Counted from the first letter of the stretch, positions 47,485 to 64,000 are shown. The stretch: DNA of 64,000 nucleotides from Gammaproteobacteria bacterium (GCA_965219665.1 CBDCOD010000019.1:30070-94069); one strand, 5' to 3'. Notes: generated by a model from the letters alone, not told the origin. Numbers and translations: made by a program.

Positions 47485-47525
47485 CAGCCTAAACCAAACT
47501 AACTGCCTATAGTCCCCTCATGCAC

Positions 47526-48662
47526 TTAACCTGAGCAGGTCAACTGCACACTACTCTGTATGCTGTAACCCATATCTATCTTACAAATACGGTAATAACG
47601 CGCTATAGACTCCCCTAATATATCCGTTAAGCGCTTATTGATTTTTGACACCACTTCAGATATACGGGGGGATAATTCGTGCTGATCACCTTCACCTACC
47701 CCCCATGTCTTCTTTACATCCTGAAAACGCCCTGCACTAGTAAGTGGCCTTAATAATTTAAGGAACAACGCTGTATCAAAAGCAGTCCAACTGACCCGCT
47801 CATTCACCTCAGTCTTACATAACAACAACTGATAAAAAGCAGCCTGTAGTGGCGGTAACTCCAGTGTTGTACCACCATGCAACATAAAGGACGCTTTCCC
47901 CCTCTCCCAATGAATGCTGGGGGGGTGCTGCATTTGTCTTATATAGCTTTTAATTTCCCCAAAACGCGTAATACGCTGTAAAAACGCTTGCGATAAATTA
48001 TCACGCGCTGACAAAATCGGCAAACTAATCAGTGAAACACGCGCCTCTTTAGCATCTAACGCTTCACCGCTGGCTGTCACAACGGTCTCTTCTCTTGGAT
48101 AATAAAAATCAGAGCACTCATACTGCTTATCAACCAAAACATGCGACAACACATCCTGTGGACGCGCATAAATAGACATTAAATAGCCCAGATAAAAGCT
48201 CATCGTTTTGCGCCCCCCTGCAAGTGAGGCATGCAAAATGCTATCGGTATCAGCCGTAAATTTTTGCACTAAACTGGCAAGCAAATCAGCACATAACACA
48301 CTGTTCTCCACACTATTAACATCCTCAATAATACCATCTGTTGACATAATAGAATGAATCTTAAGCCAATCTTTAGGCATATCCTTTAGCCCAAAATCGG
48401 CACAAAATCGGCGCAAAACACCCCCTTGATCCAGCACACCCAATCGCTGCACACCCACCAGTGTGGTTACCACATGGATCTCAGTTGGTATAAAAGCAGG
48501 CTCTTGCTTAACTAAAGCATACAGTGTCTCCGTAATAACAGATGGACTAACACCTGCCACACACAATAAAATTTTCCGTTCAGTATTCATTTTTAGTACT
48601 GGTTTGCATTCGTATTTACAGCTGGTATTACAGCCCTTTTTATTATCCTGCATTATCGTCAT
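47526..48662 (-). CDS. CARF-domain protein (Csx1/Cas_NE0113-like), C-terminal domain unassigned
   Basis: ILLCVAGVSPSVITETLYAL is the hallmark CARF N-terminal motif, and ASLAGGRKTMSF is the second CARF motif. No obvious R-x4-6-H HEPN motif in the C-terminal ~150 aa. The true start may be the internal Met at 48590. Confidence 0.7.
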   Translation of the reverse strand: MTIMQDNKKGCNTSCKYECKPVLKMNTERKILLCVAGVSPSVITETLYALVKQEPAFIPTEIHVVTTLVGVQRLGVLDQGGVLRRFCADFGLKDMPKDWLKIHSIMSTDGIIEDVNSVENSVLCADLLASLVQKFTADTDSILHASLAGGRKTMSFYLGYLMSIYARPQDVLSHVLVDKQYECSDFYYPREETVVTASGEALDAKEARVSLISLPILSARDNLSQAFLQRITRFGEIKSYIRQMQHPPSIHWERGKASFMLHGGTTLELPPLQAAFYQLLLCKTEVNERVSWTAFDTALFLKLLRPLTSAGRFQDVKKTWGVGEGDQHELSPRISEVVSKINKRLTDILGESIARYYRICKIDMGYSIQSSVQLTCSG

Positions 48663-48896
48663 TCATTACGACAGCAGCAACGTAATTGCAATAACACGTA
48701 TTATCTAAACTATTGCCCCTTCACACCAGCTTTTCAAATAACCACAACATTTCCATCTATTTTGACAACATTGTCCTTTTTTTACAGCAAACTTGCGCTT
48801 ATTGAACTTGCTTCGATGCTCAAGTATAGTGCCGCCCAAGTTTGAGCAGAATACAACTTGCTTCATTTATAAAAAGCCACAACGGAGAAACTCATA

Positions 48897-49682
48897 ATGT
48901 CACAGAAAACCATGTTGCAAAAATTTATACAAAAAAACCTTCACCTAAAAAGATATGCGGCACTCACTATGCTCGCTGGAGCTTTCTTGCTTTCTGGCTG
49001 TGCTGCCATAAAAACCGCAATTGAACACAGTGACTTGGAGGTGCAAACCAAAATGTCTAGCACCATCTTTTTAGAGATAAGTGATACGCTAGAAAAAACC
49101 ATATACGTTGACATCCGCAACACCAGTGACAAGCCCATCAATGTATCTCCAGCCATCCAAACGGCGCTTCAGAAAAAAGGCTACACAATCGTTACTAAAC
49201 CCAAAGATGCCTTTTACTTCTTACAGGGCAACATCTTATATGTCGGCGAAAAAAGCCCCTCTGCACTACAAGACCAAATGGCAGCAGGCTATGGTGCTAA
49301 TGGTGCAGGCGTTGCAACGGGAGCTGCAGTCGGAATTCTGGCGTCTAGATCTGGAAACCGTGGAGAAGCTGCTGTAGCAGGCGCGGTCGTTGGCGGCGCT
49401 ATTGAAGTCATCTCTGGCTCGCTGGTAGAAAACGTAACCTACTCCATGCTAACCGATATTCAAATATCAGAGCGCTCATCCGAAATAGTTGCTCAGACTC
49501 AAGAAAGCAATTTAAAGCAAGGCGAATCCTCCAGCGTGAAGCAAAGCAGTAGTAGGCAAACCAATCGCAAAAAGTACCAAACGCGCATTCTATCCAGTGC
49601 TAACCAAGTCAACTTAGACTGGGAGGCAGCAAGACCCGCTTTAGAAGAAGGCTTAGCAAAATCCATATCAGGTATTTTCTAA
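48897..49682 (+). CDS. traT: TraT complement-resistance / surface-exclusion outer-membrane lipoprotein homolog
   Basis: Lipobox LLSGC, then AIKTAIEHSDLEVQTKMSSTIFLE... and ...KYQTRILSSANQVNLDWEAARPALEEGLAKSISGIF. These parallel F-plasmid TraT nearly block for block ([24 protein letters not shown]... [37 protein letters not shown]). GGAG SD 7 nt upstream. Confidence 0.85.
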   Translation: MSQKTMLQKFIQKNLHLKRYAALTMLAGAFLLSGCAAIKTAIEHSDLEVQTKMSSTIFLEISDTLEKTIYVDIRNTSDKPINVSPAIQTALQKKGYTIVTKPKDAFYFLQGNILYVGEKSPSALQDQMAAGYGANGAGVATGAAVGILASRSGNRGEAAVAGAVVGGAIEVISGSLVENVTYSMLTDIQISERSSEIVAQTQESNLKQGESSSVKQSSSRQTNRKKYQTRILSSANQVNLDWEAARPALEEGLAKSISGIF

Positions 49683-49850
49683 GCCCTATTACGCGATAGC
49701 TTCCAGCGTGTGGTGCTGCTTAAACCTCAAGTTGCACCACACTTTATAAAAGAATACCAACCAAGAGCCATAAGAGGACGATATGACCACACAAAAGTTA
49801 CCACAGCCGCAGGCGATCGGTAACCAACAGCATACAAAAGGAGATATATT

Positions 49851-50621
49851 ATGTCAGAAACACTATTTTTCATTATTTTTATTACACTCTGCATTGTCCT
49901 TGCAATAAAAACCAAAAGCCTGCCCTCAGCAGAGGAGCGGCACAAAATGCGCTTGCAGAAAAACCAGCAAAGACGATTAAGCCATGCTGGCAAAATCAGA
50001 AAAGCAAGAAGAAGCGGCTCAAGCCGTGGAGGAGGGTTAAACCATGTCGGGCTTGGCATGGCAGCGGGTGCAGCAGGATTGGCAGCATACAGCACCCTAT
50101 CCAACAGCGATGATGCTATCGCTTCATCAAACACCTCTACAGCCTTTGATGATAGTTCCTCAAACATCACCAGTTTTGACATAAACCCTGCAAATGGACT
50201 GCCCATGGTGGATGGAATAGGTAGCATAGATATTGGAGGCAATACCTATGGCACCGACTCCGATACCTTTGATGATAGTTCCTCAAACACCACCAGTTTT
50301 GACATAAACCCTGCAAGTGGACTGCCCATGGTGGATGGAATAGGTAGCATAGATATTGGAGGCAATACCTATGGCACCGACTCCGATACCTTTGATGATA
50401 GTTCCTCAAACACCACCAGTTTTGACATAAACCCTGCAAGTGGACTGCCCATGGTGGATGGAATAGGTAGCATAGATATTGGAGGCAATACCTATGGCAC
50501 CGACTCCGATACCTTTGATCATAGTTTCTCATCCTTTGATGACAGCTTTTCATCCTTCGATGACAGCTTTTCATCCTTCGATGACAGCTTTTCATCGTCC
50601 TCTTTTGACGATGATTGGTAA
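49851..50621 (+). CDS. membrane-anchored acidic repeat protein (3 x 41-aa repeats plus SFDDSFSS mini-repeats)
   Basis: N-terminal TM helix, then three near-identical 41-aa units (DDSSSNTTSFDINPASGLPMVDGIGSIDIGGNTYGTDSDTF) and a C-terminal (SFDDSFSS)x3. Confidence 0.55.
   Translation: MSETLFFIIFITLCIVLAIKTKSLPSAEERHKMRLQKNQQRRLSHAGKIRKARRSGSSRGGGLNHVGLGMAAGAAGLAAYSTLSNSDDAIASSNTSTAFDDSSSNITSFDINPANGLPMVDGIGSIDIGGNTYGTDSDTFDDSSSNTTSFDINPASGLPMVDGIGSIDIGGNTYGTDSDTFDDSSSNTTSFDINPASGLPMVDGIGSIDIGGNTYGTDSDTFDHSFSSFDDSFSSFDDSFSSFDDSFSSSSFDDDW
50145..50513 (+). repeat. 3 x 123-bp near-perfect tandem direct repeat (coding), followed by 3 x 24-bp mini-repeats
   Basis: TTTGATGATAGTTCC... recurs at 50145, 50268, 50391 and 50514, a period of 123 bp with 1-2 mismatches per unit. 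Confidence 0.9.
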
Positions 50622-50688
50622 GTTACTTCAAAAAAACCACACTTTTAACCTTAATTTAACGCAAACATCAACCACTATAGGACAAATT

Positions 50689-50997
50689 ATGAATAATCAA
50701 ACTAAAACATCAACAGCGAACTCTACAACACAAGAAACAATAACCGTTCCCCCAAGCAACAATGCATTACCTGCAATTGGAGTAACCGGATTATGTACAG
50801 GGTTGACGCTCGGCATAATGATTATGATCATAGGGCTACAGAATTTCCAAGTCAGTTTACTTGCAGGCTTACCGAGCCTTTTATACGGCGCATTAATTTG
50901 TATCATAGCCATTGCATGGAATGCGCTCTTAAGTGGCTTTGCCACTATGGTTCAAGCGCAAGTGGACATCCGAAACGCCACTGTTTCAAAAAAATAA
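50689..50997 (+). CDS. small membrane protein (about 103 aa, two predicted TM helices)
   Basis: MNNQTKTS... then hydrophobic GVTGLCTGLTLGIMIMIIGL and LPSLLYGALICIIAIAW. The ORF track's longer frame (50479..) overlaps the upstream gene, so an internal start was chosen. Confidence 0.35.
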   Translation: MNNQTKTSTANSTTQETITVPPSNNALPAIGVTGLCTGLTLGIMIMIIGLQNFQVSLLAGLPSLLYGALICIIAIAWNALLSGFATMVQAQVDIRNATVSKK

Positions 50998-51074
50998 ATA
51001 GCACAAGCAAAAAAATTCCAAGTAGAAAAAAAAATAGGCTATCATATAAAAAAATAAATAAAATGTGCTCTACT

Positions 51075-51368
51075 ATGAAAACAATACTCACCACCAGACA
51101 CCCTGCCACTGTGCAATGGCTTGCCCGTCAAGGCATTGCAGCAGAACAGGTCGATCATGTATCGTCTGACAGCATTACCCACCCGGTAAAACTCATTGGC
51201 AATGTCCCTCCAGCCATTGCCGCACAAGTATGCCAGCAAGGTGGCGAGTATTGGCACATTGACCTTGATTTACCTCAAACCATACGCGGCAAAGAACTCA
51301 GCGTTTCAGACTTAGAACAATATAAGGCTAAAATAATCCGCTATCACATTGAACAAATCACCTCTTAA
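51075..51368 (+). CDS. small hypothetical protein immediately upstream of cmr1 (candidate CRISPR accessory, Csx16-like?)
   Basis: About 97 aa starting MKTILTTRHPATVQWLARQG. Positioned as the first gene of the cmr cluster after an A-rich promoter-like region (51000-51060). Family assignment not verifiable from sequence alone. Confidence 0.35.
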   Translation: MKTILTTRHPATVQWLARQGIAAEQVDHVSSDSITHPVKLIGNVPPAIAAQVCQQGGEYWHIDLDLPQTIRGKELSVSDLEQYKAKIIRYHIEQITS

Positions 51369-51382
51369 ACGGCACCAAAACT

Positions 51383-52510
51383 ATGGAATTTATCAATCCT
51401 TTTGCAAACAACACGCTAACGGCAACCTATCAAATCAACACCCCCATGTTTTTAGGCGGTGCCGATGGCTGTGCAGATACCATAACCCCCCAATCTTTTA
51501 AGGGGCTCATGCGCTTTTGGTGGCGCGCATGGCAGTGGCAACATGCCAAGGGCAGCGACGATTCAGAAAAACTGGCTGACCTACACCACAAAGAAGCCCT
51601 ACTCTTTGGCTCCAGCGCACCAAAACCAAACACAAAAGACAAAAAGGAACTCTACGGTCAAGGTGCCTTTACTCCATAATCATTCGCCACGAGGAGCTCG
51701 AAAAACTGACCAACTGAGAACACGCAGAGTAAATTCAAATACCTTGCCTACGGCAATGCAATCGTTCAAAAAAGCAAATCCCGAAAAGGATACATCAAGA
51801 ACGCACAAAAGAACATACGAATCAAAAAAATGCACTTTTAAGCAGTTCAAGCTTACTTTAATAGACACAAGTACAGTTGACAGCTGAAGCATCAAGGCTA
51901 TGATGACGTAACCATAGACGCAACAACTTGACAACGACTTACTTAGACCTAATTGGAACTGGTAGGTAGTCTGGGCAGTCGCAAATCACGCAAAGGTTTC
52001 GGCAGTTCTATTCAGAAATAAGATGATTTTCTCTCACCCGCAGGTAATATCAAGAAAAAGTACTAAATGCACTTCTCAATGCCTACAACCAGATATGACA
52101 TGCGCGCTCCGTATCACTGCATTTTCCAAACTAATAAAATACGTAGCTGGCAGGCAGTGACAAAAAAAAACGACTCAACTGCATTGCTCCGCTTCCTGAC
52201 AAGGTCATTACCTGAAAGAGCTAGAACAAATGAGTGGTGCCTTTCCTCAGGCAACCGCCAAAAAGAAGGCATGAAAAATAAACGTCAACTGCTTGGTCTT
52301 AACGATTAAAGACATTAACGATAAACGATCGTCATAGCGCGCCCGTCTTTTTCCACATTCCATCAACAACAGTTCAAGACCCAAATATACGTTACTTCTT
52401 ATGCCATCAAACATGTACTTCACCCAGCACCTGCGCTCTTTGAGAAAACAACCATAGATGAAAAGAAGGGGCTGGCTGCCGTCAAGAACTATGTAAACAA
52501 TATAGCTCAA
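51383..52510 (+). pseudogene. cmr1: cmr1 remnant (type III-B RAMP Cmr1), disrupted by multiple stops and frameshifts
   Basis: The first 98 codons (51383-51679) carry the Cmr1 RAMP motif ITPQSFKGLMRFWWRAWQ, then terminate. The remaining ~830 bp before cmr2 carries only short ORFs in several frames (51543-51887, 52067-52309). Stops at 51677, 51707 and 51843 lie in the original frame. Confidence 0.6.
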
Positions 52511-52528
52511 ACCACGCAAAATTAAAAC

Positions 52529-54493
52529 ATGACAAAAAAATACTTTCACCTCACCATCGGCCCCGTGCAAGGGTTTATAGCCAGCGCGCGCCGTACCCGC
52601 GATTTATGGGCAGGATCCTTCATCCTCTCCACGCTATCTGCCGTTGCCATGCGCTCCGCTATCGCTCAAGAGAGCACAACAATCATTTTCCCCGCTGCTG
52701 ATAAGGGCTCTCTGCAATGGTTGGAACCCTCTAATACCCAACCTGAACGATTCCCTAACTACCCCAACCGCTTTATGGCAGAAGTGCCAGCAGACTTTAA
52801 CCCCCAAGCCGTAGTTACAGACATCAACGCAGCGTGGCAATCAATCGCCAATGCAGTCTGGACAGCAGACTTTCAAAACGCCAACGCAGAAACCAAAGCA
52901 ATCTGGGATAGACAAGTTGCACATTACTGGGAAATAAGTTGGGTGCTGACAGATGACCGAAAAGACACCAGTGCCTTAGATCGGCGCAAAAACTGGCGCA
53001 GCCACATCCCCCCTGCAGAACCCGGTAATAAATGTATGCTCATGGACAGCTTACAAGAGCTCTCCGGCAGCCTACAGGCAAGCACTATAGAACGACAAAC
53101 ATTCTGGAAAAAACAAGCACAAGTAAGCAAGAGATTAGATATAAGCGCCAAAGAACATTTAAGTGCCATTGCCTACATCAAACGCCGCCTAATCATTGCT
53201 CTTAAAGAAGGTATCCAGGCAGAATTAACAGGATGGCAATTAAACCTCAAAATAAATCCAAGTGATGCCAACGAAGACGACATTCGCTCTCAAGCACCCT
53301 CCACCGCTCACATTGCCGCCGTCGATTGGCTAAAAGCCATTAAAAACAAAATGCAAGATGATCAAACAGCCGAAGAAAAAATCAAAACCAACATCCGTAG
53401 ATTGATCGAATCCATTGAAGGCATACCCCAAACCAATCATTTACTCAAAAGCGAAAGCAATTCGACTCTCATTAAAGACAACAGAAAAAATTCTAACTTT
53501 AATAATCTTAGTTACTGTGAAGCCAGTCTGTTTTATCCACACCTTATCAATTCCCGCTTAGACTTGGAACTCACACCCGACAACGAGCGAAAGCTGCTCG
53601 ACAACCTCAACGCACTATGCGAGCGCGTAGACAAAAAGCCCACTGCCTTTTATGCAATACTGTGCATGGATGGCGACAGCTTTGGGCAATTCCTGAGCAA
53701 CTCACAAAACCACGCCAAAATCAGCAAAGGGCTAAATGCATTCACTAAAGAAGTGCCGAAAATAGTAAAACAACATACAGGCTTCACCCTCTATGCCGGC
53801 GGTGAAGATGTGCTTGCCATGCTCCCCATTAGCCAAGCCATTGCTTGCGCCCATAAGCTGCAACAAGAATTTACTGCAATTTTTCAAAGTAAGCTGAATA
53901 AGGGCGGAGAGAACGTACTGCCCACCATCAGCGCCGGCATCGTCTTTAGCCACCTCAAAATGCCGCTGATGCAAAGCATAAGCCGCGCCCATGAGGTCTT
54001 AGACGACATTGCCAAAGAACAAACCGGGCGTAATGCCATCGCCTGTGAAATCAACAAACCCTCTGGTCGTACCGCACAATGGGCAATGCCTTGGGACAAG
54101 GCAGCCGATGACGATGATAACAGCGCTATGATGATTAGCACTATTAGCGAGACATTAAAAGAGAAAAATCAAGCCGATGCCTCTTTTTCTACCAAATTCC
54201 TCTATCACTTTCGCAATAGTTATCACTTATTCAAAGATAAGAACAGCCATGAGGCAATAAGCAAAGATCTGCTCACTGCCTTAGTGATCAGCAACCTACA
54301 ACAAAGCAAAGGGCGCGCTGCTGAACTCAGCGCAGCAGAACAAAAACTTGCCAAACAAATCATCGATCAATCCTGGATTTATAAATCAGATAGCAAAGGG
54401 CAGCCCATACAAAGCGACCAAATAAGTGATGCCTTCGTAATGCTCGCCCGCTTCTTAGCCACTGATGGCATAGACGGAGGGAACCGCACATGA
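52529..54493 (+). CDS. cmr2: Cmr2/Cas10 lacking the HD nuclease domain, with a cyclase palm domain carrying GGED
   Basis: N-terminus LTIGPVQGFIASARRTRDLWAGSFILSTLS is the conserved Cmr2 D1 block. Palm motifs ILCMDGDSFGQF (about 53666-53690) and YAGGEDVLAML (GGED at 53801-53812). 654 aa, consistent with Cmr2 minus the ~215-aa HD domain. Confidence 0.85.
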   Translation: MTKKYFHLTIGPVQGFIASARRTRDLWAGSFILSTLSAVAMRSAIAQESTTIIFPAADKGSLQWLEPSNTQPERFPNYPNRFMAEVPADFNPQAVVTDINAAWQSIANAVWTADFQNANAETKAIWDRQVAHYWEISWVLTDDRKDTSALDRRKNWRSHIPPAEPGNKCMLMDSLQELSGSLQASTIERQTFWKKQAQVSKRLDISAKEHLSAIAYIKRRLIIALKEGIQAELTGWQLNLKINPSDANEDDIRSQAPSTAHIAAVDWLKAIKNKMQDDQTAEEKIKTNIRRLIESIEGIPQTNHLLKSESNSTLIKDNRKNSNFNNLSYCEASLFYPHLINSRLDLELTPDNERKLLDNLNALCERVDKKPTAFYAILCMDGDSFGQFLSNSQNHAKISKGLNAFTKEVPKIVKQHTGFTLYAGGEDVLAMLPISQAIACAHKLQQEFTAIFQSKLNKGGENVLPTISAGIVFSHLKMPLMQSISRAHEVLDDIAKEQTGRNAIACEINKPSGRTAQWAMPWDKAADDDDNSAMMISTISETLKEKNQADASFSTKFLYHFRNSYHLFKDKNSHEAISKDLLTALVISNLQQSKGRAAELSAAEQKLAKQIIDQSWIYKSDSKGQPIQSDQISDAFVMLARFLATDGIDGGNRT

Positions 54494-55572
54494 ACAACAC
54501 CATGCAAACCACCCACATCACCCTCACCCCCAACGACAGCCTGTTCTTTCGTGAATCCCGCCCTATGGAATCAGTCGGCGGCGCTATCCTAGAAAGCCAG
54601 TTTCCACCCAACCCCCAAACCCTTATTGGCGCCCTAAAAGGCTATGTTGGCGAGCAATATGGTGTGGACTTTAAAACCGTTCGCGAAAACACTAAAAAGG
54701 GCAAGCCCTATACAAAAGAGGGCTTCACCATGGACTTTGGTGACAGCAACGCAGACCTCTCCATAACCGATATGGCACTACGCCATCAAGACACGGGCAT
54801 AGGCACAGACTACTACCCTGCCCCTCTCTTTGTGGCTTACAGCGAAACCGATAAGCAATATGCTCTCATTCAACCCAGTGCGCAATCAACTGAATGCGAT
54901 TTAGGCAACGTACACTTACCCACCCTCCCTAAAGAGAAGACGGGCTATAAACCCTTAGAAAACGCTTGGCTGAGTAGTAAAGACTACACCAATGTCCTTC
55001 AAGGCAAACTGCCCACGAGCCACCTTAAAAAAAGCGCCATCCTTAAGGATGAGTTTCATCTTGGCATCAGCATTGACAAAGAGAGCAACACCGCAGAAGA
55101 CCACAAACTCTATCAAAGCATGCACACCCGCCTCAAGCAAGGCATGCAGCTGCATCTCACGCTCCGACACCGTAAAGACATACAAATCAACAACGGAACC
55201 ATCCGCTTAGGCGCAGAAGGAAGAAGTGCCCAACTCACAATCATCGAATCGCCCGAAAGCATCACCTCCACCCCTAAAAATAACAAAATAAGCCTAATCT
55301 TAACCACCCCCGCACTGTTCAAAAACACAGACGCACTGCATGAAGCAATAGCGCAATACGGCACCCTGATCAGCGCCTGCTTAGGCAAAACCACCCGAAT
55401 GGGCGGCTGGAATTTAGCCCAAAATCAACCACGAGAAGCCATCTCAGCCATTCCCGCTGGCAGCACGTGGTTCGTTGAGGCAAGCCCTAACGCATGCCCC
55501 CCTGCCGCCATTGGCGAGCAAACAACTAAAGGCTTTGGCATCGTCCGTTGCGGCACCTGGCAGCACCTATAA
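54490..55572 (+). CDS. cmr3: Cmr3
   Basis: N-terminus LTPNDSLFFRESRPM...SQFPPNPQTLIGALKG is typical of Cmr3. C-terminal G-rich loop TTKGFGIVRCG. ATGA overlap with cmr2. Confidence 0.8.
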   Translation: MNNTMQTTHITLTPNDSLFFRESRPMESVGGAILESQFPPNPQTLIGALKGYVGEQYGVDFKTVRENTKKGKPYTKEGFTMDFGDSNADLSITDMALRHQDTGIGTDYYPAPLFVAYSETDKQYALIQPSAQSTECDLGNVHLPTLPKEKTGYKPLENAWLSSKDYTNVLQGKLPTSHLKKSAILKDEFHLGISIDKESNTAEDHKLYQSMHTRLKQGMQLHLTLRHRKDIQINNGTIRLGAEGRSAQLTIIESPESITSTPKNNKISLILTTPALFKNTDALHEAIAQYGTLISACLGKTTRMGGWNLAQNQPREAISAIPAGSTWFVEASPNACPPAAIGEQTTKGFGIVRCGTWQHL

Positions 55573-55597
55573 ACACCCCAAAATTGAGGAATATAAT

Positions 55598-56443
55598 ATG
55601 AAAAACACCATACTTGGACTACACGCACAAACCGCCATCCACGCAGGATCAGGGCAATCATTGGATGTCATCGACCTCCCCATTCAGCGCGAAGCCCACT
55701 CAGGCTACCCCGTTATCTTTGGTTCATCGCTCAAAGGCGCCCTGCGCGCCCATGCTGACCACAACAACGCTGAACACCTCAGCACCATCTACGGTTCAGA
55801 AAATGCGGAACACGCCAGCGCCATCCGCATCAGCGATGCCAAGCTCATCGCCCTGCCGGTGCGCTCACTCACCACCCACTTTCGCCTTGTAACCTGCCCA
55901 CACCTCTTAGAACGCCTCAACCGCGACCTCGCCCAAATTGGCAAGAATACATTAGAAATACCCAGCGTTAAAAATGAAACTGAGATTCGCACCGCTGATC
56001 AAAAAGATCAAACAAACCTATTCTTAGAGGAGTACCGCTACACCGTACGCACCTGTGGGAAACTACCGCACTGGCAACAACAAATAGCGGAACTCACCGG
56101 ACAAAACAGCGAACAGTTAGCAAACCTATCCGTCATCTCCAATGACCAGTTTGCTCACATCTGCCAAACCGCCACTGCCATTGCCCCACACATTGCCATT
56201 GACAATAAAAACAAAACCGTCAAAGGCGGCGCACTCTGGTTTGAAGAAACCCTACCCCCCGAAACGCTCCTCTACAGCCTCATCAGCGCGGTTGATGCTC
56301 GACATAAAGACACAACATTAAAAGCGACTGAAGTGCTTAACGCATTCAAGCAGCCTCTAACAGAAAGCTATCTCCAAGTCGGCGGCAACGAAACCGTGGG
56401 CATGGGTTGGTGCAAGGCGACGGTAACTGGAGGTGCACAATGA
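55598..56443 (+). CDS. cmr4: Cmr4 (backbone RAMP, target-RNA cleaving subunit)
   Basis: MKNTILGLHAQTAIHAGSGQSLDVIDLPIQRE...IFGSSLKGALRAHA are the RAMP G-rich and catalytic-loop motifs. The start was chosen at the ATG at 55598, which has a GAGGA SD; the ORF track begins at 55475. Confidence 0.9.
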   Translation: MKNTILGLHAQTAIHAGSGQSLDVIDLPIQREAHSGYPVIFGSSLKGALRAHADHNNAEHLSTIYGSENAEHASAIRISDAKLIALPVRSLTTHFRLVTCPHLLERLNRDLAQIGKNTLEIPSVKNETEIRTADQKDQTNLFLEEYRYTVRTCGKLPHWQQQIAELTGQNSEQLANLSVISNDQFAHICQTATAIAPHIAIDNKNKTVKGGALWFEETLPPETLLYSLISAVDARHKDTTLKATEVLNAFKQPLTESYLQVGGNETVGMGWCKATVTGGAQ

Positions 56444-56838
56444 GTAATACGATTACACCCCAAACCATTGAGCAACAGCGCGCAGCGTTTGCATACCAAT
56501 TAGTCACAGCTCATAAAAAGAACGATCGACTCAAAGCCTACGCCCGTAACCTACCAGGCATGATACTCACCAACGGCTTTGGGCAAGCCATGGCGTTTTG
56601 CCTATCTAAAAGCGGCAAGAATAACAGCAATGAAGAACAAGCCTATACAGCCCTGCAACAAGGCATCTTTGAATGGCTTGGGGCTGAACCGCAAAAACTG
56701 CTTAATGGTGGCTCAGACATCGTTGCCGCCATTACTGAACTTGACCAACACCGATATCAACTCGCCACTGCCGAAGCCCTTGCTCTATGCAAATGGATCA
56801 AGCAACTCGCCACCGCTCTCATTGAAGATACAGACTAA
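56440..56838 (+). CDS. cmr5: Cmr5 (small alpha-helical subunit)
   Basis: About 132-aa helical protein between cmr4 and cmr6. ATGA overlap with the cmr4 stop. Confidence 0.7.
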   Translation: MSNTITPQTIEQQRAAFAYQLVTAHKKNDRLKAYARNLPGMILTNGFGQAMAFCLSKSGKNNSNEEQAYTALQQGIFEWLGAEPQKLLNGGSDIVAAITELDQHRYQLATAEALALCKWIKQLATALIEDTD

Positions 56839-56867
56839 AAACACCGACTAACCCAACTTCTAAGAAA

Positions 56868-58126
56868 ATGCCCATGTCAAACCCATCAATGTTGCCACTA
56901 CACAAATCTTGTAAAGACGCAGCCAAGCAATTAGATTCACACCTTGGTCTCTCAGGTTCACACCTTGGTCTCTACTTTGATAAATACTTCTCCTACTCCC
57001 GCTCTCCAAATAATAACATTGAAGCCGCACCTGAAAACAAAAAAGAATTTCTAAAAAAATTCAACAAAGCTAACATCCCACCATCGCTTGAAAATGCCAA
57101 CATCAATCAAGTACGACTCATCCAAAAATTAAACGGCACATTCAAAGCCTTCAAAACCACCTCCTCCTTTGTAACCGGCATGGGGCAAGATCACCCCTTA
57201 GAAAATGGCTTTGCTTTTCACCCCACCTACGGCACCCCCTACCTCCCCGGCAGCAGTGTCAAAGGCATGCTGCGCCACTTCTTTACCCACCACTACCAAT
57301 GGGGAAATGAAGATAAAGCAACATTCCTCAACCAAGTATTCGGCAGCGATAATCCCAAGCAACCCGCCATAGGAAACTACCTGTTTTTTGATGCCCTCCC
57401 TACCGAGACCGTCACAATGCACACCGAAATCATGACCCCGCACTACGGCGATTGGTACGCAAAAGGAGGCGACAAAACAGAAAATACAAAAAACGACACA
57501 TCATCCCAGGCGATTGGCACGAACCAATCCCTATCCAATTCCTTGCTGTCAAAAACGCCACCTTCCTCTTTGCCATCGCCCCGCGCAATGGCACAACCGA
57601 GCAGCCTGACTACCTCTCCTTTCTCTTTAAAGGACTCGACTGCATCCTCATGCACCTTGGCGCTGGTGCCAAAACTGCCACCGGCTTCGGTTATATGGCT
57701 TTTAATGAAGAACAAACTGAAAAATCAGAAGAAAATGCGCTAACCCCCGAAGAAAAGAAAGAGCGCGAGCGAAAAATTGAAGAGCAGAAGCAAAAAGAGA
57801 TTAAAGAGAATGCATGGAAAGAAACTAAAGCAAAAGAACAGGCAGAAGCAGCAAAGCGAGCAGCATTTGACAGCACCCTATCTACAACAGATAAATGGTT
57901 TTTAGAGAAAAACTATGCAGAATGCTCTCCAGATGGCGATGCCCTGGTTTTCAAAATAACCAAGCCCAACAAGGCACTCAAAGACCCTGACTTATCCTCA
58001 AATTTTGAGTTAAAGAAGGCGGTCATTGAAGTCATACAGGTGCATAAAGAAAAACCCTATTCCCACACCTTCTGGGACAAAACAATACGCAAAAAGGTCA
58101 ACGATTCACTCAAAAAAATGAAATAA
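56868..58126 (+). pseudogene. cmr6: cmr6 with an internal frameshift (two overlapping reading frames, 56868-57743 and 57452-58126); it carries an unusual ~170-aa charged C-terminal extension
   Basis: Frame A has the RAMP block YGTPYLPGSSVKGMLRHFF. Frame B has the C-terminal G-rich loop HLGAGAKTATGFGYMAF. The frames switch between 57447 and 57517, where a 9-bp direct repeat GGCGATTGG flanks a 62-bp segment. Confidence 0.75.
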
Positions 58127-58191
58127 TCCTGAACACATAAAAGCAATACGCCATAATGCTTATGCTCAATGCACACAGCTATTAACCAACT

Positions 58192-59127
58192 ATGAACTTA
58201 GAACTTATGCAACTAATAGAACAATTCGGCTTTAGCCTCTTCGTCTTCGCTTTAATCACCCTTCTGCTCATCTACCTCCTGATGGGCATAAAAATCGTAC
58301 CGCAAGCACAGCAATGGGTTATTGAGCGATTAGGCTCCTACAATCGCACCTTAGACGGTGGGCTCAACTACATCATACCCATCGTTGACTCTACACGCGC
58401 CAAATACCAAACACAAGAACAAGTCATTGACATTCCCTCGCAGCGCGTTATCACCCGTGATAACGTTTCCATCTCTATTGATGGACTCGTATTCATCCGC
58501 ATCACCAACGCCAAACAAGCCATCTATGGCGTATTAGACATGCGACACGCCATCTCACAATTGGCACAAACCACGCTCCGCTCCGAAATTGGCAAAATGG
58601 ACTTAGACGACTCCCTCTCCTCACGCGACCACCTTAACGCCGCACTCCTCACCGCATTAGATAATGCTGCAGGTGGCTGGGGTGTCAAAGTAACGCGTGT
58701 AGAAATATCTGACATTGACGTACCCAGCGAAGTCAAAACAGCCATGGAACTGCAACTGCGCGCCGAGCGCGAACGCCGCGCCACTGTTACCAAAGCCGAA
58801 GGCGATAAAAACGCCGCCATTGCTCAAGCCGAAGGCGAGCGGCAACGTGCCTTTAAAGAAGCTGAAGCTATTGAGCGCACGGCAGACGCTAAACAATATG
58901 AGCAAATTCAACTTGCCGAAGGACAAAAGCAAGCGATGGAACTCATCAACCTGGCAATGGAAAACAACCCCCAAGCTGCCGATTTTTTACTTGCAAAAGA
59001 CCGCATCAAAGCCTTCAATGACCTTGCCAAAAACACCAGTCAAGACAAAGTTATCGTACCGTACGAAGCCAGTGCCCTCGTTGGCGCACTCTCAATTATC
59101 ACTGAGAACCTTACTAATAAAAAATGA
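58192..59127 (+). CDS. SPFH/band-7 (stomatin/paraslipin-like) membrane protein
   Basis: N-terminal TM helix, then KIVPQAQQWVIERLGSYNRTLDGGLNYIIP, the canonical SPFH start. C-terminal Ala/Glu-rich coiled coil. 311 aa. Confidence 0.85.
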   Translation: MNLELMQLIEQFGFSLFVFALITLLLIYLLMGIKIVPQAQQWVIERLGSYNRTLDGGLNYIIPIVDSTRAKYQTQEQVIDIPSQRVITRDNVSISIDGLVFIRITNAKQAIYGVLDMRHAISQLAQTTLRSEIGKMDLDDSLSSRDHLNAALLTALDNAAGGWGVKVTRVEISDIDVPSEVKTAMELQLRAERERRATVTKAEGDKNAAIAQAEGERQRAFKEAEAIERTADAKQYEQIQLAEGQKQAMELINLAMENNPQAADFLLAKDRIKAFNDLAKNTSQDKVIVPYEASALVGALSIITENLTNKK

Positions 59128-59555
59128 CCACTCTACTCATCCCAGCTATACCCGCGTGGTATCTCATCATCATCGGCATAGCCATTGTTGGTGTTGAACT
59201 GTTTTTCATGAACCTATTCGTCATACTCTGGTTTGGACTGGCAGCCATATTCATTGGTGCCCTCAACTTATTTTTACCCTTTTCTCACGGCGAATATCAA
59301 CTACTACTCATTGCACTAATCGGCAGCACTGCCCTGTTCATGTATCATAAAAAATACAAACCATCACGCACCAAAAATAAACACTTAGACTCCTATACTA
59401 CAGGTGGAACAGGTAGCGTAATCACCACTAATCAAGGCATTAAAATCAATTATCAGGGAACGCTCTGGAGCATTGCCCCACCAGCCCCCACCAACCTAAA
59501 AGACGGCGACAACGTCATCATCAAAGAAATCAAGTCCAATCAAGTCGTTTTATGA
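59124..59555 (+). CDS. NfeD-like short-form membrane protein (partner of SPFH proteins)
   Basis: Three hydrophobic helices, then a C-terminal OB-fold-like region (GTGSVITTNQGIKINYQGTLWSIAP...GDNVIIKEI), as in YuaF/YbbJ. ATGA overlap with the SPFH gene. Confidence 0.7.
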   Translation: MTTLLIPAIPAWYLIIIGIAIVGVELFFMNLFVILWFGLAAIFIGALNLFLPFSHGEYQLLLIALIGSTALFMYHKKYKPSRTKNKHLDSYTTGGTGSVITTNQGIKINYQGTLWSIAPPAPTNLKDGDNVIIKEIKSNQVVL

Positions 59556-60589
59556 TTCTCATATCACTGATTGGACCACAAATTCTCCCCAATATTTTTG
59601 CGCTCCGACACTACGGCAATGAAATCAGCAAGCACTTCATACTCTGCGATAAAAACCCTAAAAATCTGGCAGCTGCCCAATTGCTTAAAGATTTTTGTGA
59701 ACCAAGCGGCATGCCAACCATCGTCATAACAGCCAACCTCAAACAAGCCCACAGTTGCTACAACGTTTGCTGCCAAATCATTGAAGACAACCGTGCCGTG
59801 CAAACCATTCTCAATGCCACCTGTTCGCTCAAAACTGCCGCTCTTGGTGCTTTCATGGCAATGCAACAGCACAATCAGCGCACCATCTATGTTGACGGGC
59901 AAAGAATCCAACGCGTCCACCACTCAGAGGATCACAACACCATCGCCCCTATTAAAGCCCGCATCAGTATTGCAGACTACCTACAAGCATACGGCTTTAG
60001 CATCACACCCTCTACCCAAGACCACACCATAGGGGAAAAATTTGGCAACTACCTCTTCGACGACAACTTGCTCAGAATATGGATGAGGGATAGTAAATAC
60101 ACCCCCCACGAACGGATTGCAAAATGGCTCAGAAGCAACAACATACTCGCAGGCAACCGCACGATAAAACCTGAAAAACGGGCATGGTATTCTGGCACCT
60201 GGTTTGAGCAATGGGTCTATGTCACACTGAAAAAACACTTTGCAAAAAATCCTGCTGTATCCGACATTTGTAGCAGCTTTAAGGTGAAAAAACATGCAGA
60301 AAATGAAATAGACGTTGCCTTTGTTCATAATAACATCCTGCACCTGATTGAATGCAAAGCAGGAAAGCCCGAAAAACAAAGCCAAGAAGGCCTGCGCTTC
60401 TCCAGCGTTGCTGAAACCATTGGTGGCACCTACACCAAATGCGCCGTACTATTTTTGCGCCCAACAAAAGACACCATAAAAGAACGCGCCAGCGACACCA
60501 CCAACTTACACTACATTGACAACATTGAAAACACAACCGACTTATGCACCAAAGTAGATCAATGGCTTGAAAAATCAAATTTCTCATGA
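59552..60589 (+). CDS. CARF + PD-(D/E)xK nuclease (Can2/Card1-like cOA-activated nuclease)
   Basis: N-terminus MILISLIGPQILPNIFAL is the CARF strand-1 motif. The C-terminus has E...IDVAFVHNNILHLIECKAGK at 60311-60360, i.e. D...E-C-K. 345 aa. ATGA overlaps on both sides. Confidence 0.7.
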   Translation: MILISLIGPQILPNIFALRHYGNEISKHFILCDKNPKNLAAAQLLKDFCEPSGMPTIVITANLKQAHSCYNVCCQIIEDNRAVQTILNATCSLKTAALGAFMAMQQHNQRTIYVDGQRIQRVHHSEDHNTIAPIKARISIADYLQAYGFSITPSTQDHTIGEKFGNYLFDDNLLRIWMRDSKYTPHERIAKWLRSNNILAGNRTIKPEKRAWYSGTWFEQWVYVTLKKHFAKNPAVSDICSSFKVKKHAENEIDVAFVHNNILHLIECKAGKPEKQSQEGLRFSSVAETIGGTYTKCAVLFLRPTKDTIKERASDTTNLHYIDNIENTTDLCTKVDQWLEKSNFS

Positions 60590-61452
60590 ACCCCAAAAAC
60601 AACCCGGCACAAAACTTTAAGCTAAAAAATGCACTCACTAGCACCTTTGGCAGTCTGGACCTAACAACCATAGGAATCGCCATACTCCTATTAGCACTTA
60701 TTGGCTGGAGCGCAGACAGCCTACTCAACACCCTCACCTTTAGCATAGCTTCCCCCTTAACGCACCTTAGCATAGCAGCACTATCACTCGCTGCCTTATC
60801 CCTTCTTATAAAAATACTGCATAAAAAAGCACAAGGCATAGGCAACAACCTCCTCATTGAAGCCACCCAAAACAAACCCAAACGCTTAGATGCCCAAAAC
60901 CTTATTTTTATCGTATCGCCTGCAAGGCACTTTGCCGATATAGATAAAAAACTACAATGCCCAGATACACAAAAAAACCTACAAGAATTGATAGAAGAAG
61001 AATCCACAGAAACGAAACCGACTACACAACCCAAAAAAAAATACCAATGGTATATGCCCTATAGCACCATCAAAGAACATCAGCCCAAAAACATCTATCC
61101 CATCTTTACTTCAGGCGAATATGGCAGCAGTAAACAAAAAGAGACTTTCTTAAATCTCTTTAGAGGCATATTCCCCGACAAAACCATTCATGATGCAGAT
61201 TATCAAACCCTACAATCCACCGATTTGACTGAGCTATCCAAAGCCTACGACAAGATAGAACAAAAAGTTCTCAACGACGACAAATACCGCCCCAACCAAA
61301 TTCTCGTTGATGTAACAGGCGGTCAAGCCTCCATGAGCGCCATGCTCGCTGTCAACTCCACCATTGATGATGCCATCATCAGCTACGTGGACACCAATGA
61401 CTATAAAATTCACTACTTTGACTTTCGCAGCCACAACCCATCAGAAGAATGA
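60586..61452 (+). CDS. two-TM membrane protein with a C-terminal CARF domain (Cam1-like membrane effector)
   Basis: Hydrophobic helices at about aa 27-48 and 58-80. The C-terminal ~180 aa has the CARF-like motifs LIFIVSPA and ILVDVTGGQASMSAM at 61301-61340 (D-x-T-G-G-x-x-x-M). 288 aa. Confidence 0.55.
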   Translation: MNPKNNPAQNFKLKNALTSTFGSLDLTTIGIAILLLALIGWSADSLLNTLTFSIASPLTHLSIAALSLAALSLLIKILHKKAQGIGNNLLIEATQNKPKRLDAQNLIFIVSPARHFADIDKKLQCPDTQKNLQELIEEESTETKPTTQPKKKYQWYMPYSTIKEHQPKNIYPIFTSGEYGSSKQKETFLNLFRGIFPDKTIHDADYQTLQSTDLTELSKAYDKIEQKVLNDDKYRPNQILVDVTGGQASMSAMLAVNSTIDDAIISYVDTNDYKIHYFDFRSHNPSEE

Positions 61453-62297
61453 ATGCCTTCCTCCCGCTATTCAAAATCCAAATAACCCTTACAGCCCTAT
61501 CCTCTATTACATTTCGCACTCCCCATCACAACATCATTTTAGATGCCTTCCTACGCTCACTCCTCAGCCAAGAGCAAAAAAAACAATACGCCACCACGCT
61601 TATCATCAGCCCCCAAACACCAATCCAAGCCATCACATACGGCAACGCCTACACCTTTAACATCACAGCCATTAACAATGCCCTTCTGCTTAGCCGGCTA
61701 CTATTCCAACTCAAATCCTTACCATTCTCTGCCCGTATTCGAGACACAACAGCCCCGCTACGCCACAACCTCAAATTCCACCAAGCCACCTGTATGCACA
61801 CAGGTCATAAAGCCAACAGCATTAAAGACCTCACCCCAATCCAAGCCATAGACCTTGAAAACAGAGCATTAGAACTCGCCTCGCATAGCCAGCTCCCCAT
61901 AACCCTAAACTTAGCACGCCTCAAAAAAAGCCACCTTAAAAAAACCAGCAACACCGAACAAAACTTCGCCCAAAACAGCACCGAACTAACCGCTGAACTC
62001 CTATTAGAGCGCATCAACACCACCATAAGCCACCTACACCGTGCGCTCAACATAAATGCCACACCGCAGCCCCCTCTTCCTACAGCCACCACAACAACGC
62101 AATACTGCAAATGGATAAACCTACCCTACTTTGACAAAAACAAGCAGGAAAAAACATGCGGCGGACTCAACGCACAACTCACGCTAAGACCGCAAAACTG
62201 GTCATTGGACCACTACCGCCAACTGGCACTGATTGAACACGTAGGCATTGGACAACGCCGCACATCTGGTTTTGGCACGCTCACCATCAACGCATGA
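61449..62297 (+). CDS. cas6: Cas6-like RAMP endoribonuclease (standalone)
   Basis: C-terminal glycine-rich loop HVGIGQRRTSGFGTL (G-h-G-x5-G-h-G) typical of Cas6. 282 aa. ATGA overlaps with its neighbours. Confidence 0.55.
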   Translation: MNAFLPLFKIQITLTALSSITFRTPHHNIILDAFLRSLLSQEQKKQYATTLIISPQTPIQAITYGNAYTFNITAINNALLLSRLLFQLKSLPFSARIRDTTAPLRHNLKFHQATCMHTGHKANSIKDLTPIQAIDLENRALELASHSQLPITLNLARLKKSHLKKTSNTEQNFAQNSTELTAELLLERINTTISHLHRALNINATPQPPLPTATTTTQYCKWINLPYFDKNKQEKTCGGLNAQLTLRPQNWSLDHYRQLALIEHVGIGQRRTSGFGTLTINA

Positions 62298-64000
62298 AAA
62301 TTCCCCTACCGAAACTACCTTCCCAGCAAGCCCTCAGCGTTGACCTCCAGTTTATACAGCCCCAAAATCTTCCACTCTACCATGAACCTGTTATTCAAAA
62401 TGCACTCAAGGCACTCACCCGCCAACTGCTCCCCTCAAACACCTCCACCCCTTTTACCCTCATCTGCCCCGAAAGCGCCCGCACCCACTATCCTGCAAAC
62501 ACCTCCTACTACTTTTGCATAATCAGCCTCAGCATAGACTCCATACAACCCCTCTGGCAGCAACTCATCATCAAACTGCGCCAACTCCCGATAGAATCAA
62601 CGCCCTTTATCAAAAACTGCACCCTCATATCGCTACGAAACCTCTTAGACGGCACGCCCGTATCCAATGCCCAATCCTTAACCCAATACACCTTTGACTT
62701 AGCACTATCGCAAGCAACAGACTGGCGCAACACACAAACCACAACCCTTAATTGGCGCTGGATTAGCCCTGCCCATACCCCTATCGGCAACACCTTATGC
62801 CGCGATAAAACCGAGCTATCTGCCAAACACCTCTGTGAACAAATCGCACACAGCCTATACGATCTCATCCAGCACAATAACAGCACCGAAACAAACCACT
62901 TATTTCATCTATGGACTCAATCCCAGTACAAGCATATAGCAATACATAAAGCCGATCTATATTGGATAGACACCCCTTATCACCCAAATCAAACCAATTT
63001 CTCTGGCATATCAGGTAACTTTACATTTAGCCTGTCTGAAGAGGCCCCCACCAAATTATTAGCCCTCATCATCTACGCTCAGAATATTGGCATTGGCCTT
63101 AATTACCAAAAAGGATTTGGCAAATACCGCCTCTCAAGCCCAAACGATACGTACTTCTCCACACTATCCAACCACTGCATGCCCATCACGCGCTGTGAAT
63201 CATTGCTCAAGCACTTTACGCACCCCCAAATGATTGAACGCGCCATTGCAGAATTAGAGCAAAAACCCAACATCGACAAGCTCAGCGACAAAACCCATGC
63301 CCAAATACAATCTGCCATTGGTCAAGTTCGCAAACAAGATTACACCCCTCCTAATTTATTTGGGTTCACCACGCCTAAAAAAGACGGCACCGACCGCCTA
63401 CTCGCTGTCGCTCCCCTATATGATCGCATCCTACAAAAAGCCTGTGCCATCGCACTCACACCCACCTTAGAAGCTATCATGAGCCAAGCCTCCTTCGGCT
63501 ACCGCAAAGGACTATCACGCCAGCAAGTCCGCTATGCTATTCAGCAATACTACAGGCAAGGCTACAAGTGGGTCTTGGAATCCGACATTGATGATTTCTT
63601 TGACTCCATTAACCGCACGCTACTCATCAATCGCCTTGCCAGTTTTTTTGGCCCTGACCCACTATGGAACCTCATGGAACAATGGCTCAACAGACCCATA
63701 ATCTATCAAGGGCACACTATCCAACGTCCCGATGGCATACCACAAGGCTCACCTCTCAGCCCACTACTAGCAAACTTTATTCTGGACGACTTTGACTCTG
63801 ACCTTGAAGCCTATGGTTTCAAACTCATTCGCTTTGCTGACGACTTTGTTATTCTCTGCCGCTCTAAATCTGAAGCCATAGAAGCACGCAGTGCCGTAAC
63901 GAAACATCTCAAAGAAATCAATCTCAAACTCAATCCAGAAAAAACCCACATTAGCGAAATAGACCACGGGTTCCGCTTTTTAGGTTACCTTTTCCACGAA
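62294..64000 (+). CDS. Cas6-reverse transcriptase fusion (N-terminal part of a Cas6-RT-Cas1 protein), truncated by the window end
   Basis: Manual translation finds no stop from the ATG at 62294 to 64000. The N-terminal ~330 aa end in a second Cas6 G-rich loop, NIGIGLNYQKGFGKYRL. After that come RT motifs: RLLAVAPLYDRILQ, QGSPLSPLLANFIL and the catalytic box FADDFVIL. Absent from the ORF track because it is edge-truncated. Confidence 0.8.
   Translation, partial: MKIPLPKLPSQQALSVDLQFIQPQNLPLYHEPVIQNALKALTRQLLPSNTSTPFTLICPESARTHYPANTSYYFCIISLSIDSIQPLWQQLIIKLRQLPIESTPFIKNCTLISLRNLLDGTPVSNAQSLTQYTFDLALSQATDWRNTQTTTLNWRWISPAHTPIGNTLCRDKTELSAKHLCEQIAHSLYDLIQHNNSTETNHLFHLWTQSQYKHIAIHKADLYWIDTPYHPNQTNFSGISGNFTFSLSEEAPTKLLALIIYAQNIGIGLNYQKGFGKYRLSSPNDTYFSTLSNHCMPITRCESLLKHFTHPQMIERAIAELEQKPNIDKLSDKTHAQIQSAIGQVRKQDYTPPNLFGFTTPKKDGTDRLLAVAPLYDRILQKACAIALTPTLEAIMSQASFGYRKGLSRQQVRYAIQQYYRQGYKWVLESDIDDFFDSINRTLLINRLASFFGPDPLWNLMEQWLNRPIIYQGHTIQRPDGIPQGSPLSPLLANFILDDFDSDLEAYGFKLIRFADDFVILCRSKSEAIEARSAVTKHLKEINLKLNPEKTHISEIDHGFRFLGYLFHE

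Follow-up and report, generated by a model that had tools for sequence, protein, structure and literature searches.

The stretch of DNA analysed here (GCA_965219665.1 CBDCOD010000019.1:30070-94069; 64,000 nucleotides, hereafter the window) comes from a gammaproteobacterium and carries a type III-B (Cmr) CRISPR locus. The set cmr1-cmr6, including cas10/cmr2, is present, as judged by the Pfam families assigned to the copies in contigs of related strains. Directly 3' of cmr1-6, from position 58192 to the end of the window, lie six co-oriented genes encoding, in order, an SPFH (Band 7) protein, a short NfeD-like protein, a Card1/Can2-like nuclease with a CARF domain, a protein with transmembrane segments and a CARF domain (TM-CARF), a Cas6-like protein and a fusion of Cas6 to a reverse transcriptase (RT). 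A preliminary description had put forward the first two genes, the SPFH-NfeD pair, as a candidate for an undescribed accessory module of the CRISPR system. The comparisons reported below speak against that proposal, since orthologous pairs are found without cas genes and 80 related Cmr4 loci are found without the pair. We consider it probable that the pair is an ordinary QmcA/YbbJ-type membrane-scaffold operon, embedded in the type III-B island of one Thiomicrospira-like species as a co-expressed passenger.

The six genes are joined by five ATGA start/stop overlaps (at 59124, 59552, 60586, 61449 and 62294), the ATG of the next gene overlapping the TGA of the previous one at each of the five junctions. 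Re-examination upheld all of these junctions and the coordinates of the open reading frames (ORFs), as well as the placement of the pair downstream of cmr6 and ahead of two CARF genes. The gap between cmr6 and the SPFH gene is 65 bp, and a weak promoter-like site (9/12) lies at 58130-58157; no conservation was seen when the promoter region upstream of the SPFH gene was aligned between the window and its relatives. Terminator prediction yielded no site on the + strand from 55.1 to 64 kb of the window, and from this and the compact spacing of the genes it is plausible that SPFH-NfeD is co-transcribed with the CARF genes. Short start/stop overlaps also occur at the SPFH/NfeD/next-gene junctions of orthologous loci that have no cas genes, and the overlaps are therefore not specific to the CRISPR context.

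The product of the first gene matches Pfam Band_7 (PF01145) over the full profile (residues 34-206, E 8.9e-38), which bears out its assignment in the preliminary description. Its best relative of solved structure is E. coli QmcA (8z5g_A, E 2.5e-63), with which it is collinear from residue 16 to residue 306 (QmcA residues 3-294), the C-terminal helical region included, and 7vhp is also among its solved-structure matches. The N-terminal hydrophobic segment (residues 5-39) is predicted to form one anchor. Searches of Pfam, NCBIfam and PADLOC revealed no sensor domain (CARF, SAVED or similar) and no defence model in either the SPFH or the NfeD-like protein, the PADLOC models giving no match to either.

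The NfeD-like protein was assigned through its orthologues. By itself the window protein gives a sub-threshold NfeD_membrane match (E 0.052) and no match to PF01957 at E<=1, although 10 of the 11 members of its alignment do match that family (best E 5.8e-6). A profile built from the window protein and 10 orthologues matches E. coli YbbJ (8z5g_B) over its full length, including the C-terminal domain (E 2e-5), and the gene is co-oriented with the SPFH gene, which it overlaps by 4 bp. Residues 1-55 form a hydrophobic region. A single-sequence AlphaFold2 (AF2) model has an overall predicted local distance difference test score (pLDDT) of 66, with predicted helices at 11-50 and 55-78 (block-mean pLDDT ~70-95) and a soluble C-terminal domain that scores below 50 and is modelled with low confidence. 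Thus the gene identities first proposed hold for the SPFH, CARF nuclease, TM-CARF and Cas6-RT genes; that of NfeD stands by orthology and profile, the direct Pfam match being below threshold, and that of Cas6 is weak.

Both proteins find their best match in the two chains of a single complex, the E. coli QmcA-YbbJ complex (8z5g), and the pair is therefore an SPFH-NfeD operon of the QmcA/YbbJ type. The structure is that of Tan et al. 2024 (Structure 32:1603), as cited in PMC13086221. The two systems have an architecture in common. In both, the larger protein consists of one N-terminal anchor, the SPFH domain and a C-terminal helical region; its partner is small and has several TM segments, followed at the C-terminus by a beta domain that is putative in the window protein; and the genes are adjacent. 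The window differs from E. coli in three respects. The SPFH gene precedes the NfeD gene, an order shared by 15 of the 42 adjacent pairs in the survey; the C-terminal domain of the NfeD-like protein is below Pfam significance on its own; and the genes around the pair are those of a type III-B cas operon.

Close homologues of the SPFH protein number at least 120, at 59-100% identity; orthologues among them have 60-83%, and some are named paraslipin. Many of their hosts belong to Thiomicrospira, Thiomicrorhabdus and Hydrogenovibrio, and Galenea and Sulfurivirga are also represented. Orthologues at 63-84% identity are each followed by the same NfeD-like gene and lie in housekeeping neighbourhoods free of cas genes. 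The orthologue at 84% (L002) is flanked by genes for an ABC transporter, OsmC, an NTP-transferase, ribosomal proteins S6, S18 and L9, and DnaB; that at 78% (L001, identical with L006, an uncultured Thiomicrospira chromosome) by thiolase, acyl-CoA dehydrogenase, ABC and LysR genes. At 67-70%, in T. microaerophila (L003, CP070959) and a Mono Lake contig (L166), an HbpS-like gene is followed by SPFH, NfeD and a ChaN/PDZ gene with overlapping junctions. In these two loci (L003 10001-12496 and L166 10001-12563) the SPFH, NfeD and ChaN-like haem-binding/PDZ genes occupy a conserved position beside the HbpS-like gene and may form a conserved three-gene unit.

The NfeD-like gene is directly 3' of the SPFH gene in every Thiomicrospira-clade locus fetched, and the NfeD profile identified 42 adjacent same-strand SPFH/NfeD pairs among 85 SPFH loci. 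The paraslipin/NfeD operons of the Thiomicrospira lineage (T. microaerophila, for example) have the gene order and overlapping junctions of the window, with 67-84% identity in SPFH and 35-57% in NfeD across the fetched loci; they differ in having no cas genes, and in a composition that follows their own genomes, whereas that of the window copy follows the cas island. When the Cas proteins of the window were searched by tblastn against the 85 SPFH loci, matches were confined to the strain contigs L004 and L005, with none in the other 83. A synteny search found no flanking gene common to the window and the SPFH loci of relatives. The pair has therefore moved around in the lineage, and it cannot be said to occupy the same position in relatives; a housekeeping locus without cas genes, which the preliminary description had named as an outcome that would overturn its proposal, is found in the sense of the gene pair (in relatives at 84%, 78% and 67-70%) but not in that of a conserved chromosomal position. 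A scan of viral contigs with the SPFH protein gave no close relatives.

A second survey started from the CRISPR side and covered 80 (42-50% identity) of 236 metagenomic relatives of Cmr4 confirmed by tblastn; the sequence past cmr4 is 3 kb or longer in 40 of these loci and 5 kb or longer in 23. They were searched with phmmer using the window SPFH protein, with a hidden Markov model (HMM) from 95 diverse SPFH sequences and with an NfeD HMM, and none of the 80 loci was found to contain an SPFH or NfeD gene, so that the co-occurrence at other Cmr loci that the preliminary description had proposed to look for was not seen. The same loci contain Card1-like genes in seven cases and a TM-CARF relative in one (L087). 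The first large ORF beyond cmr6 encodes the TM-CARF protein in L087, where a Cas6-RT gene comes behind it, and the Card1-like protein in L162; in L169, which holds the nearest relative of TM-CARF, the gene for that relative is succeeded by a Cas6-like one, as in the window. No SPFH or NfeD gene was found beside the two TM-CARF relatives for which context is available (L087 and L169). The CARF and Cas6 genes are therefore genes of type III-B loci, and SPFH-NfeD is the odd element in the chain.

The association of SPFH-NfeD with cas genes is accordingly confined to one species-level lineage and does not recur across independent lineages. The terms SPFH, Band 7, stomatin and NfeD are absent from the surveys of Shah et al. 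2018, the Shmakov et al. preprint and Hoikkala et al. 2024, together with two supplements, and a search of the literature on SPFH/NfeD with CRISPR, the cyclic-oligonucleotide-based anti-phage signalling system (CBASS) or phage defence yielded nothing relevant. These surveys and the PADLOC result agree with the preliminary description, which did not count SPFH/NfeD pairs among the established components of type III systems; because the comparative data show no recurrent link, SPFH-NfeD cannot be counted as one on the present evidence either.

The evolutionary rate of the window copy is not raised. Identity to the T. microaerophila clade is 67-70% for the SPFH protein of the window and 65-66% for those of two orthologues without cas genes (P0004 and P0005); for NfeD the corresponding values are 35-40% and 31-37%. 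The window proteins have therefore diverged no further than their cas-free orthologues, and nothing points to selection having been relaxed or redirected, or to neofunctionalisation.

The order cmr6-SPFH-NfeD-Card1-TM-CARF-Cas6 recurs at strain level in two contigs from different samples, L004 (ERZ25072152) and L005 (ERZ25072490), and cluster records hold further contigs of 51,959, 95,730 and 1,560,137 bp with variants of TM-CARF. Homology of the window to L004 and L005 ends at 62338, 41 bp into the Cas6-RT ORF; L004 itself ends ~140 bp beyond this point, and in L005 (14147-20936) an integrase gene, a NucS-like gene (NucS_C) and others stand in place of the RT fusion of the window. The adaptation module thus appears to vary between strains.

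The two genes that follow the pair encode very divergent CARF proteins. The Card1-like protein matches Card1_endonuc (PF09002, E 1.3e-12) and CARF_Card1 (PF23400, E 3.2e-8), both above the curated cut-offs, as well as the PADLOC model CARF4--CARF_PDDEXK (E 3.9e-45) and Can2 (7bdv, E 2.8e-15). It thus has both the CARF_Card1 and the Card1_endonuc domain of the Card1/Can2 nucleases, which are activated by cyclic tetra-adenylate (cA4), and differs from them in being very divergent: a word-indexed search of 5.8 billion proteins at E<=1e-10 returned strain copies only.

Two segments of the TM-CARF protein, residues 19-49 and 57-79, are predicted to be hydrophobic, and a CARF domain forms its C-terminal part; the two segments, with the PADLOC TM+CARF match given in the table, support the earlier claim that one of the CARF effectors is a membrane protein. 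Here, too, the word-indexed search of 5.8 billion proteins found strain copies only. An exhaustive HMMER search revealed 62 distant relatives of similar length, the best full-length matches having 24-31% identity, and a DVTGG motif is conserved across the family alignment. As a single sequence the protein has no match in the PDB, and the single-sequence AF2 model reaches a pLDDT of 41. Cam1, a membrane CARF effector activated by cA4, has 206 aa, a single TM helix and an aspartate conserved in its pore (PMC10808066). The window protein resembles it in joining N-terminal TM segments to a C-terminal CARF domain and in being encoded at a type III-B locus, but it is 288 aa long and has, besides its two hydrophobic segments, a linker of ~80 aa, and its family profile is closer to the Crn1/Sso2081 ring nuclease's CARF domain (6e-5) than to Cam1 (0.008). 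Orthology to Cam1 was rejected because of this preference for Crn1, together with the length and the two segments. A pore, a sensor or a membrane-tethered ring nuclease are all possible outputs of a protein with these predicted features.

In the last ORF of the window an RT domain (RVT_1, E 3e-39) follows an N-terminal extension of ~320 aa, and the ORF also matches PADLOC Cas1_IIIb (E 3.1e-59). The features of the whole cas island are collected in the table.

Table. Genes of the type III-B island and of the SPFH-NfeD chain (window coordinates)
Feature	Coordinates	Strand	Length (aa)	Evidence
csx1-like CARF gene (Cas_NE0113), left edge of cas island	47526..48662	-		PF09623, E 2.1e-30
Cas_VVA1548 family gene, upstream of cmr1	50793..51368	+		PF09652, E 2.4e-23
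cmr1 (RAMP), broken into short ORFs	51383..52529	+		fragments <=114 aa; intact in strain contigs
cmr2/cas10, palm GGED	52529..54493	+		Pfam Cmr2_N and Cas10-Cmr2_palm2 in L005 orthologue
cmr3	54490..55572	+		Cas_Cmr3 in strain copies 99-100% identical
cmr4 (RAMP)	55595..56443	+		Pfam RAMPs in strain copies
cmr5	56440..56838	+		Cas_Cmr5 in strain copies
cmr6 (RAMP), split over two frames (56868-57743, 57452-58126)	56868..58126	+		intact in strain copies
SPFH/Band-7 protein, QmcA/paraslipin type, N-terminal membrane anchor	58192..59127	+	311	Band_7 and QmcA matches
Short NfeD-like protein, YbbJ type	59124..59555	+	143	orthologue profile; adjacency to SPFH
Card1/Can2-like CARF + PD-(D/E)xK nuclease	59552..60589	+	345	Pfam, PADLOC and Can2 matches
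Membrane protein, 2 TM + CARF	60586..61452	+	288	PADLOC TM+CARF, E 5.2e-20
Cas6-like protein (weak assignment)	61449..62297	+	282	PADLOC Cas6, E 8.5e-4; TIGR01877, E 0.005
Cas6-RT(-Cas1?) fusion ORF, open to window end	62294..64000	+		RVT_1; PADLOC Cas1_IIIb

The strain contigs L004 and L005 encode an intact Cmr1 (351-354 aa) and an intact Cmr6 (411-417 aa). The broken frames of cmr1 and cmr6 in the window are likely to be long-read indel noise, because the related long-read assemblies show ~48 gaps per 9.8 kb, although the two could be true pseudogenes. The cyclase palm of Cas10 in the window reads GGED (motif TLYAGGEDVLAM), as against GGDD in 43 of 45 motif matches among the fetched Cmr2 relatives. 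The 64-kb window yielded no CRISPR array, for all that its type III-B effector module is complete and accompanied by an RT fusion gene.

Between csx1 and the cmr genes (48897-50621) there is a gene for a TraT surface-exclusion lipoprotein (Pfam, E 8e-73), and the same interval holds a 256-aa ORF with 3.2 copies of a 123-bp tandem repeat and with 21-bp repeats, which encodes a serine/aspartate-rich repeat protein. The chromosomal part of the window includes a 635-aa WD40 beta-propeller protein (38494-40401, - strand). From 47500 to 64000 the GC content at third codon positions (GC3) is ~0.5 and the C content at these positions (C3) ~0.4, with stronger AT and GC skew than in the chromosomal genes to the left (gcvT/H/P, a pdxB-like gene and DsrE). 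Composition and skew of the island together suggest a probable horizontal origin.

In the reading that we prefer, the SPFH-NfeD operon would be a housekeeping membrane scaffold of the kind normally carried by Thiomicrospira-like gammaproteobacteria. If the E. coli QmcA-YbbJ complex is taken as the model, a single N-terminal helix would anchor the SPFH protein, which would build, with the small NfeD membrane protein, a large cage on the inner membrane's cytoplasmic side, as its homology to 8z5g leads one to expect. Such a cage may fence off a patch of membrane and so serve the general organisation and quality control of membrane proteins. In one species the pair would have come to lie between cmr6 and the CARF genes, and it is probably transcribed together with them in the role of a passenger. 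Relatives carry the pair without cas genes and related CRISPR loci lack the pair, and it is therefore most likely a passenger and not an immune component; judged from comparative genomics, it is probably independent of CRISPR in function.

Several observations weigh on the other side. The pair is inside the cas operon and not beside it, the stop codon of NfeD overlapping the start of the Card1-like gene, and the block SPFH-NfeD-Card1-TM-CARF-Cas6 is kept in L005 despite the different right flank of that contig. The membrane-bound CARF protein in the same chain is a plausible client of the scaffold. The third-position composition of the pair (SPFH C3 0.41 and T content, T3, 0.19; NfeD C3 0.40 and T3 0.22) is that of the cas island, where the cmr genes have C3 values of 0.32-0.46 and the downstream CARF, Cas6 and RT genes of 0.39-0.46. 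It is unlike that of the 28 host genes in the window (mean C3 0.16 and T3 0.37, with C3 at 0.19-0.32 in those on the plus strand) or of the orthologues (C3 0.18-0.25 in SPFH and 0.21-0.29 in NfeD). Among 248 codons for identical amino acids in the comparison of the window with L002, 96 are identical, and 44 changes of T>C stand against 15 of C>T. From this island-like composition it follows that the linkage is old, or that the block arrived as a unit with the island from a related donor. What the composition demonstrates is that the genes have long been physically linked, not that they are linked in function.

The likeliest alternative is a recruitment specific to this lineage, in which the SPFH-NfeD cage would have been taken over to serve the 2-TM CARF protein as a membrane platform. 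The cage would corral or gate a membrane-active effector and keep it silent until cyclic oligoadenylate is present, or would promote its oligomerisation. The tight integration of the operon, with ATGA overlaps running through to the CARF genes, the codon composition, which implies long co-residence, and the persistence of the block in strain contigs that stem from different samples are all consistent with this idea, as is the prediction that TM-CARF, SPFH and NfeD are all membrane proteins. SPFH cages are known to enclose membrane clients, HflK/C-FtsH (7vhp) being an example. We nevertheless regard recruitment as unlikely, given that the association is found in one species only, with no SPFH or NfeD gene in the 80 Cmr4 loci or at L087 and L169, that the rate of change does not differ from that of the cas-free orthologues and that neither protein has a CARF, SAVED or other sensor domain. 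Moreover, the CARF domain of TM-CARF is nearest to the ring nuclease Crn1 and not to Cam1, and the protein may not form a pore. Somewhat more doubtful still is that the cage has been drawn into type III-B signalling itself, as a membrane compartment in which the 2-TM CARF protein would be held, gated or turned over.

Improbable to a slightly greater degree is that the pair is cargo of the island with a generic benefit, having come with the cas genes from a related donor. Extra membrane quality control would then buffer the envelope stress of infection or effector activation, with no specific interaction with Cas or CARF proteins. The GC3 and C3 of the pair, equal to those of the island and different from those of the rest of the window, fit such an origin, and the island also holds the TraT lipoprotein gene and, in L005, an integrase at its variable right flank. 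SPFH/NfeD systems have been linked to stress tolerance (PMC13086221). Against it, there is no second example of such cargo, and viral contigs yielded no close SPFH relatives.

A chimeric contig joining a housekeeping fragment to cas fragments might be suspected from the frame-broken cmr1 and cmr6 and from the many indels of the related contigs, which are low-coverage long-read assemblies (~48 gaps in 9.8 kb between the window and L005), but was rejected as highly improbable because the independent contigs L004 and L005, from different samples, have the same gene order, and the junctions are precise gene overlaps.

The two very divergent CARF proteins, a Card1/Can2-like nuclease and a 2-TM, ring-nuclease-like CARF protein, may merit study in their own right. 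Were the pair to prove recruited after all, it would be the first scaffold-type accessory, neither sensor nor enzyme, of cyclic-oligoadenylate immunity. SPFH cages, whose functions in bacteria are poorly defined, would gain both a client (the membrane CARF protein) and a trigger (cyclic oligoadenylate), and the locus would offer a tractable system to the SPFH and the CRISPR fields alike. If, as we think probable, the pair is a passenger, then two genes that stand amid a cas operon, their junctions overlapping and their codon usage ameliorated, still fail every comparative test of linkage to CRISPR, and embedding in an operon is therefore, on its own, a weak predictor of function.

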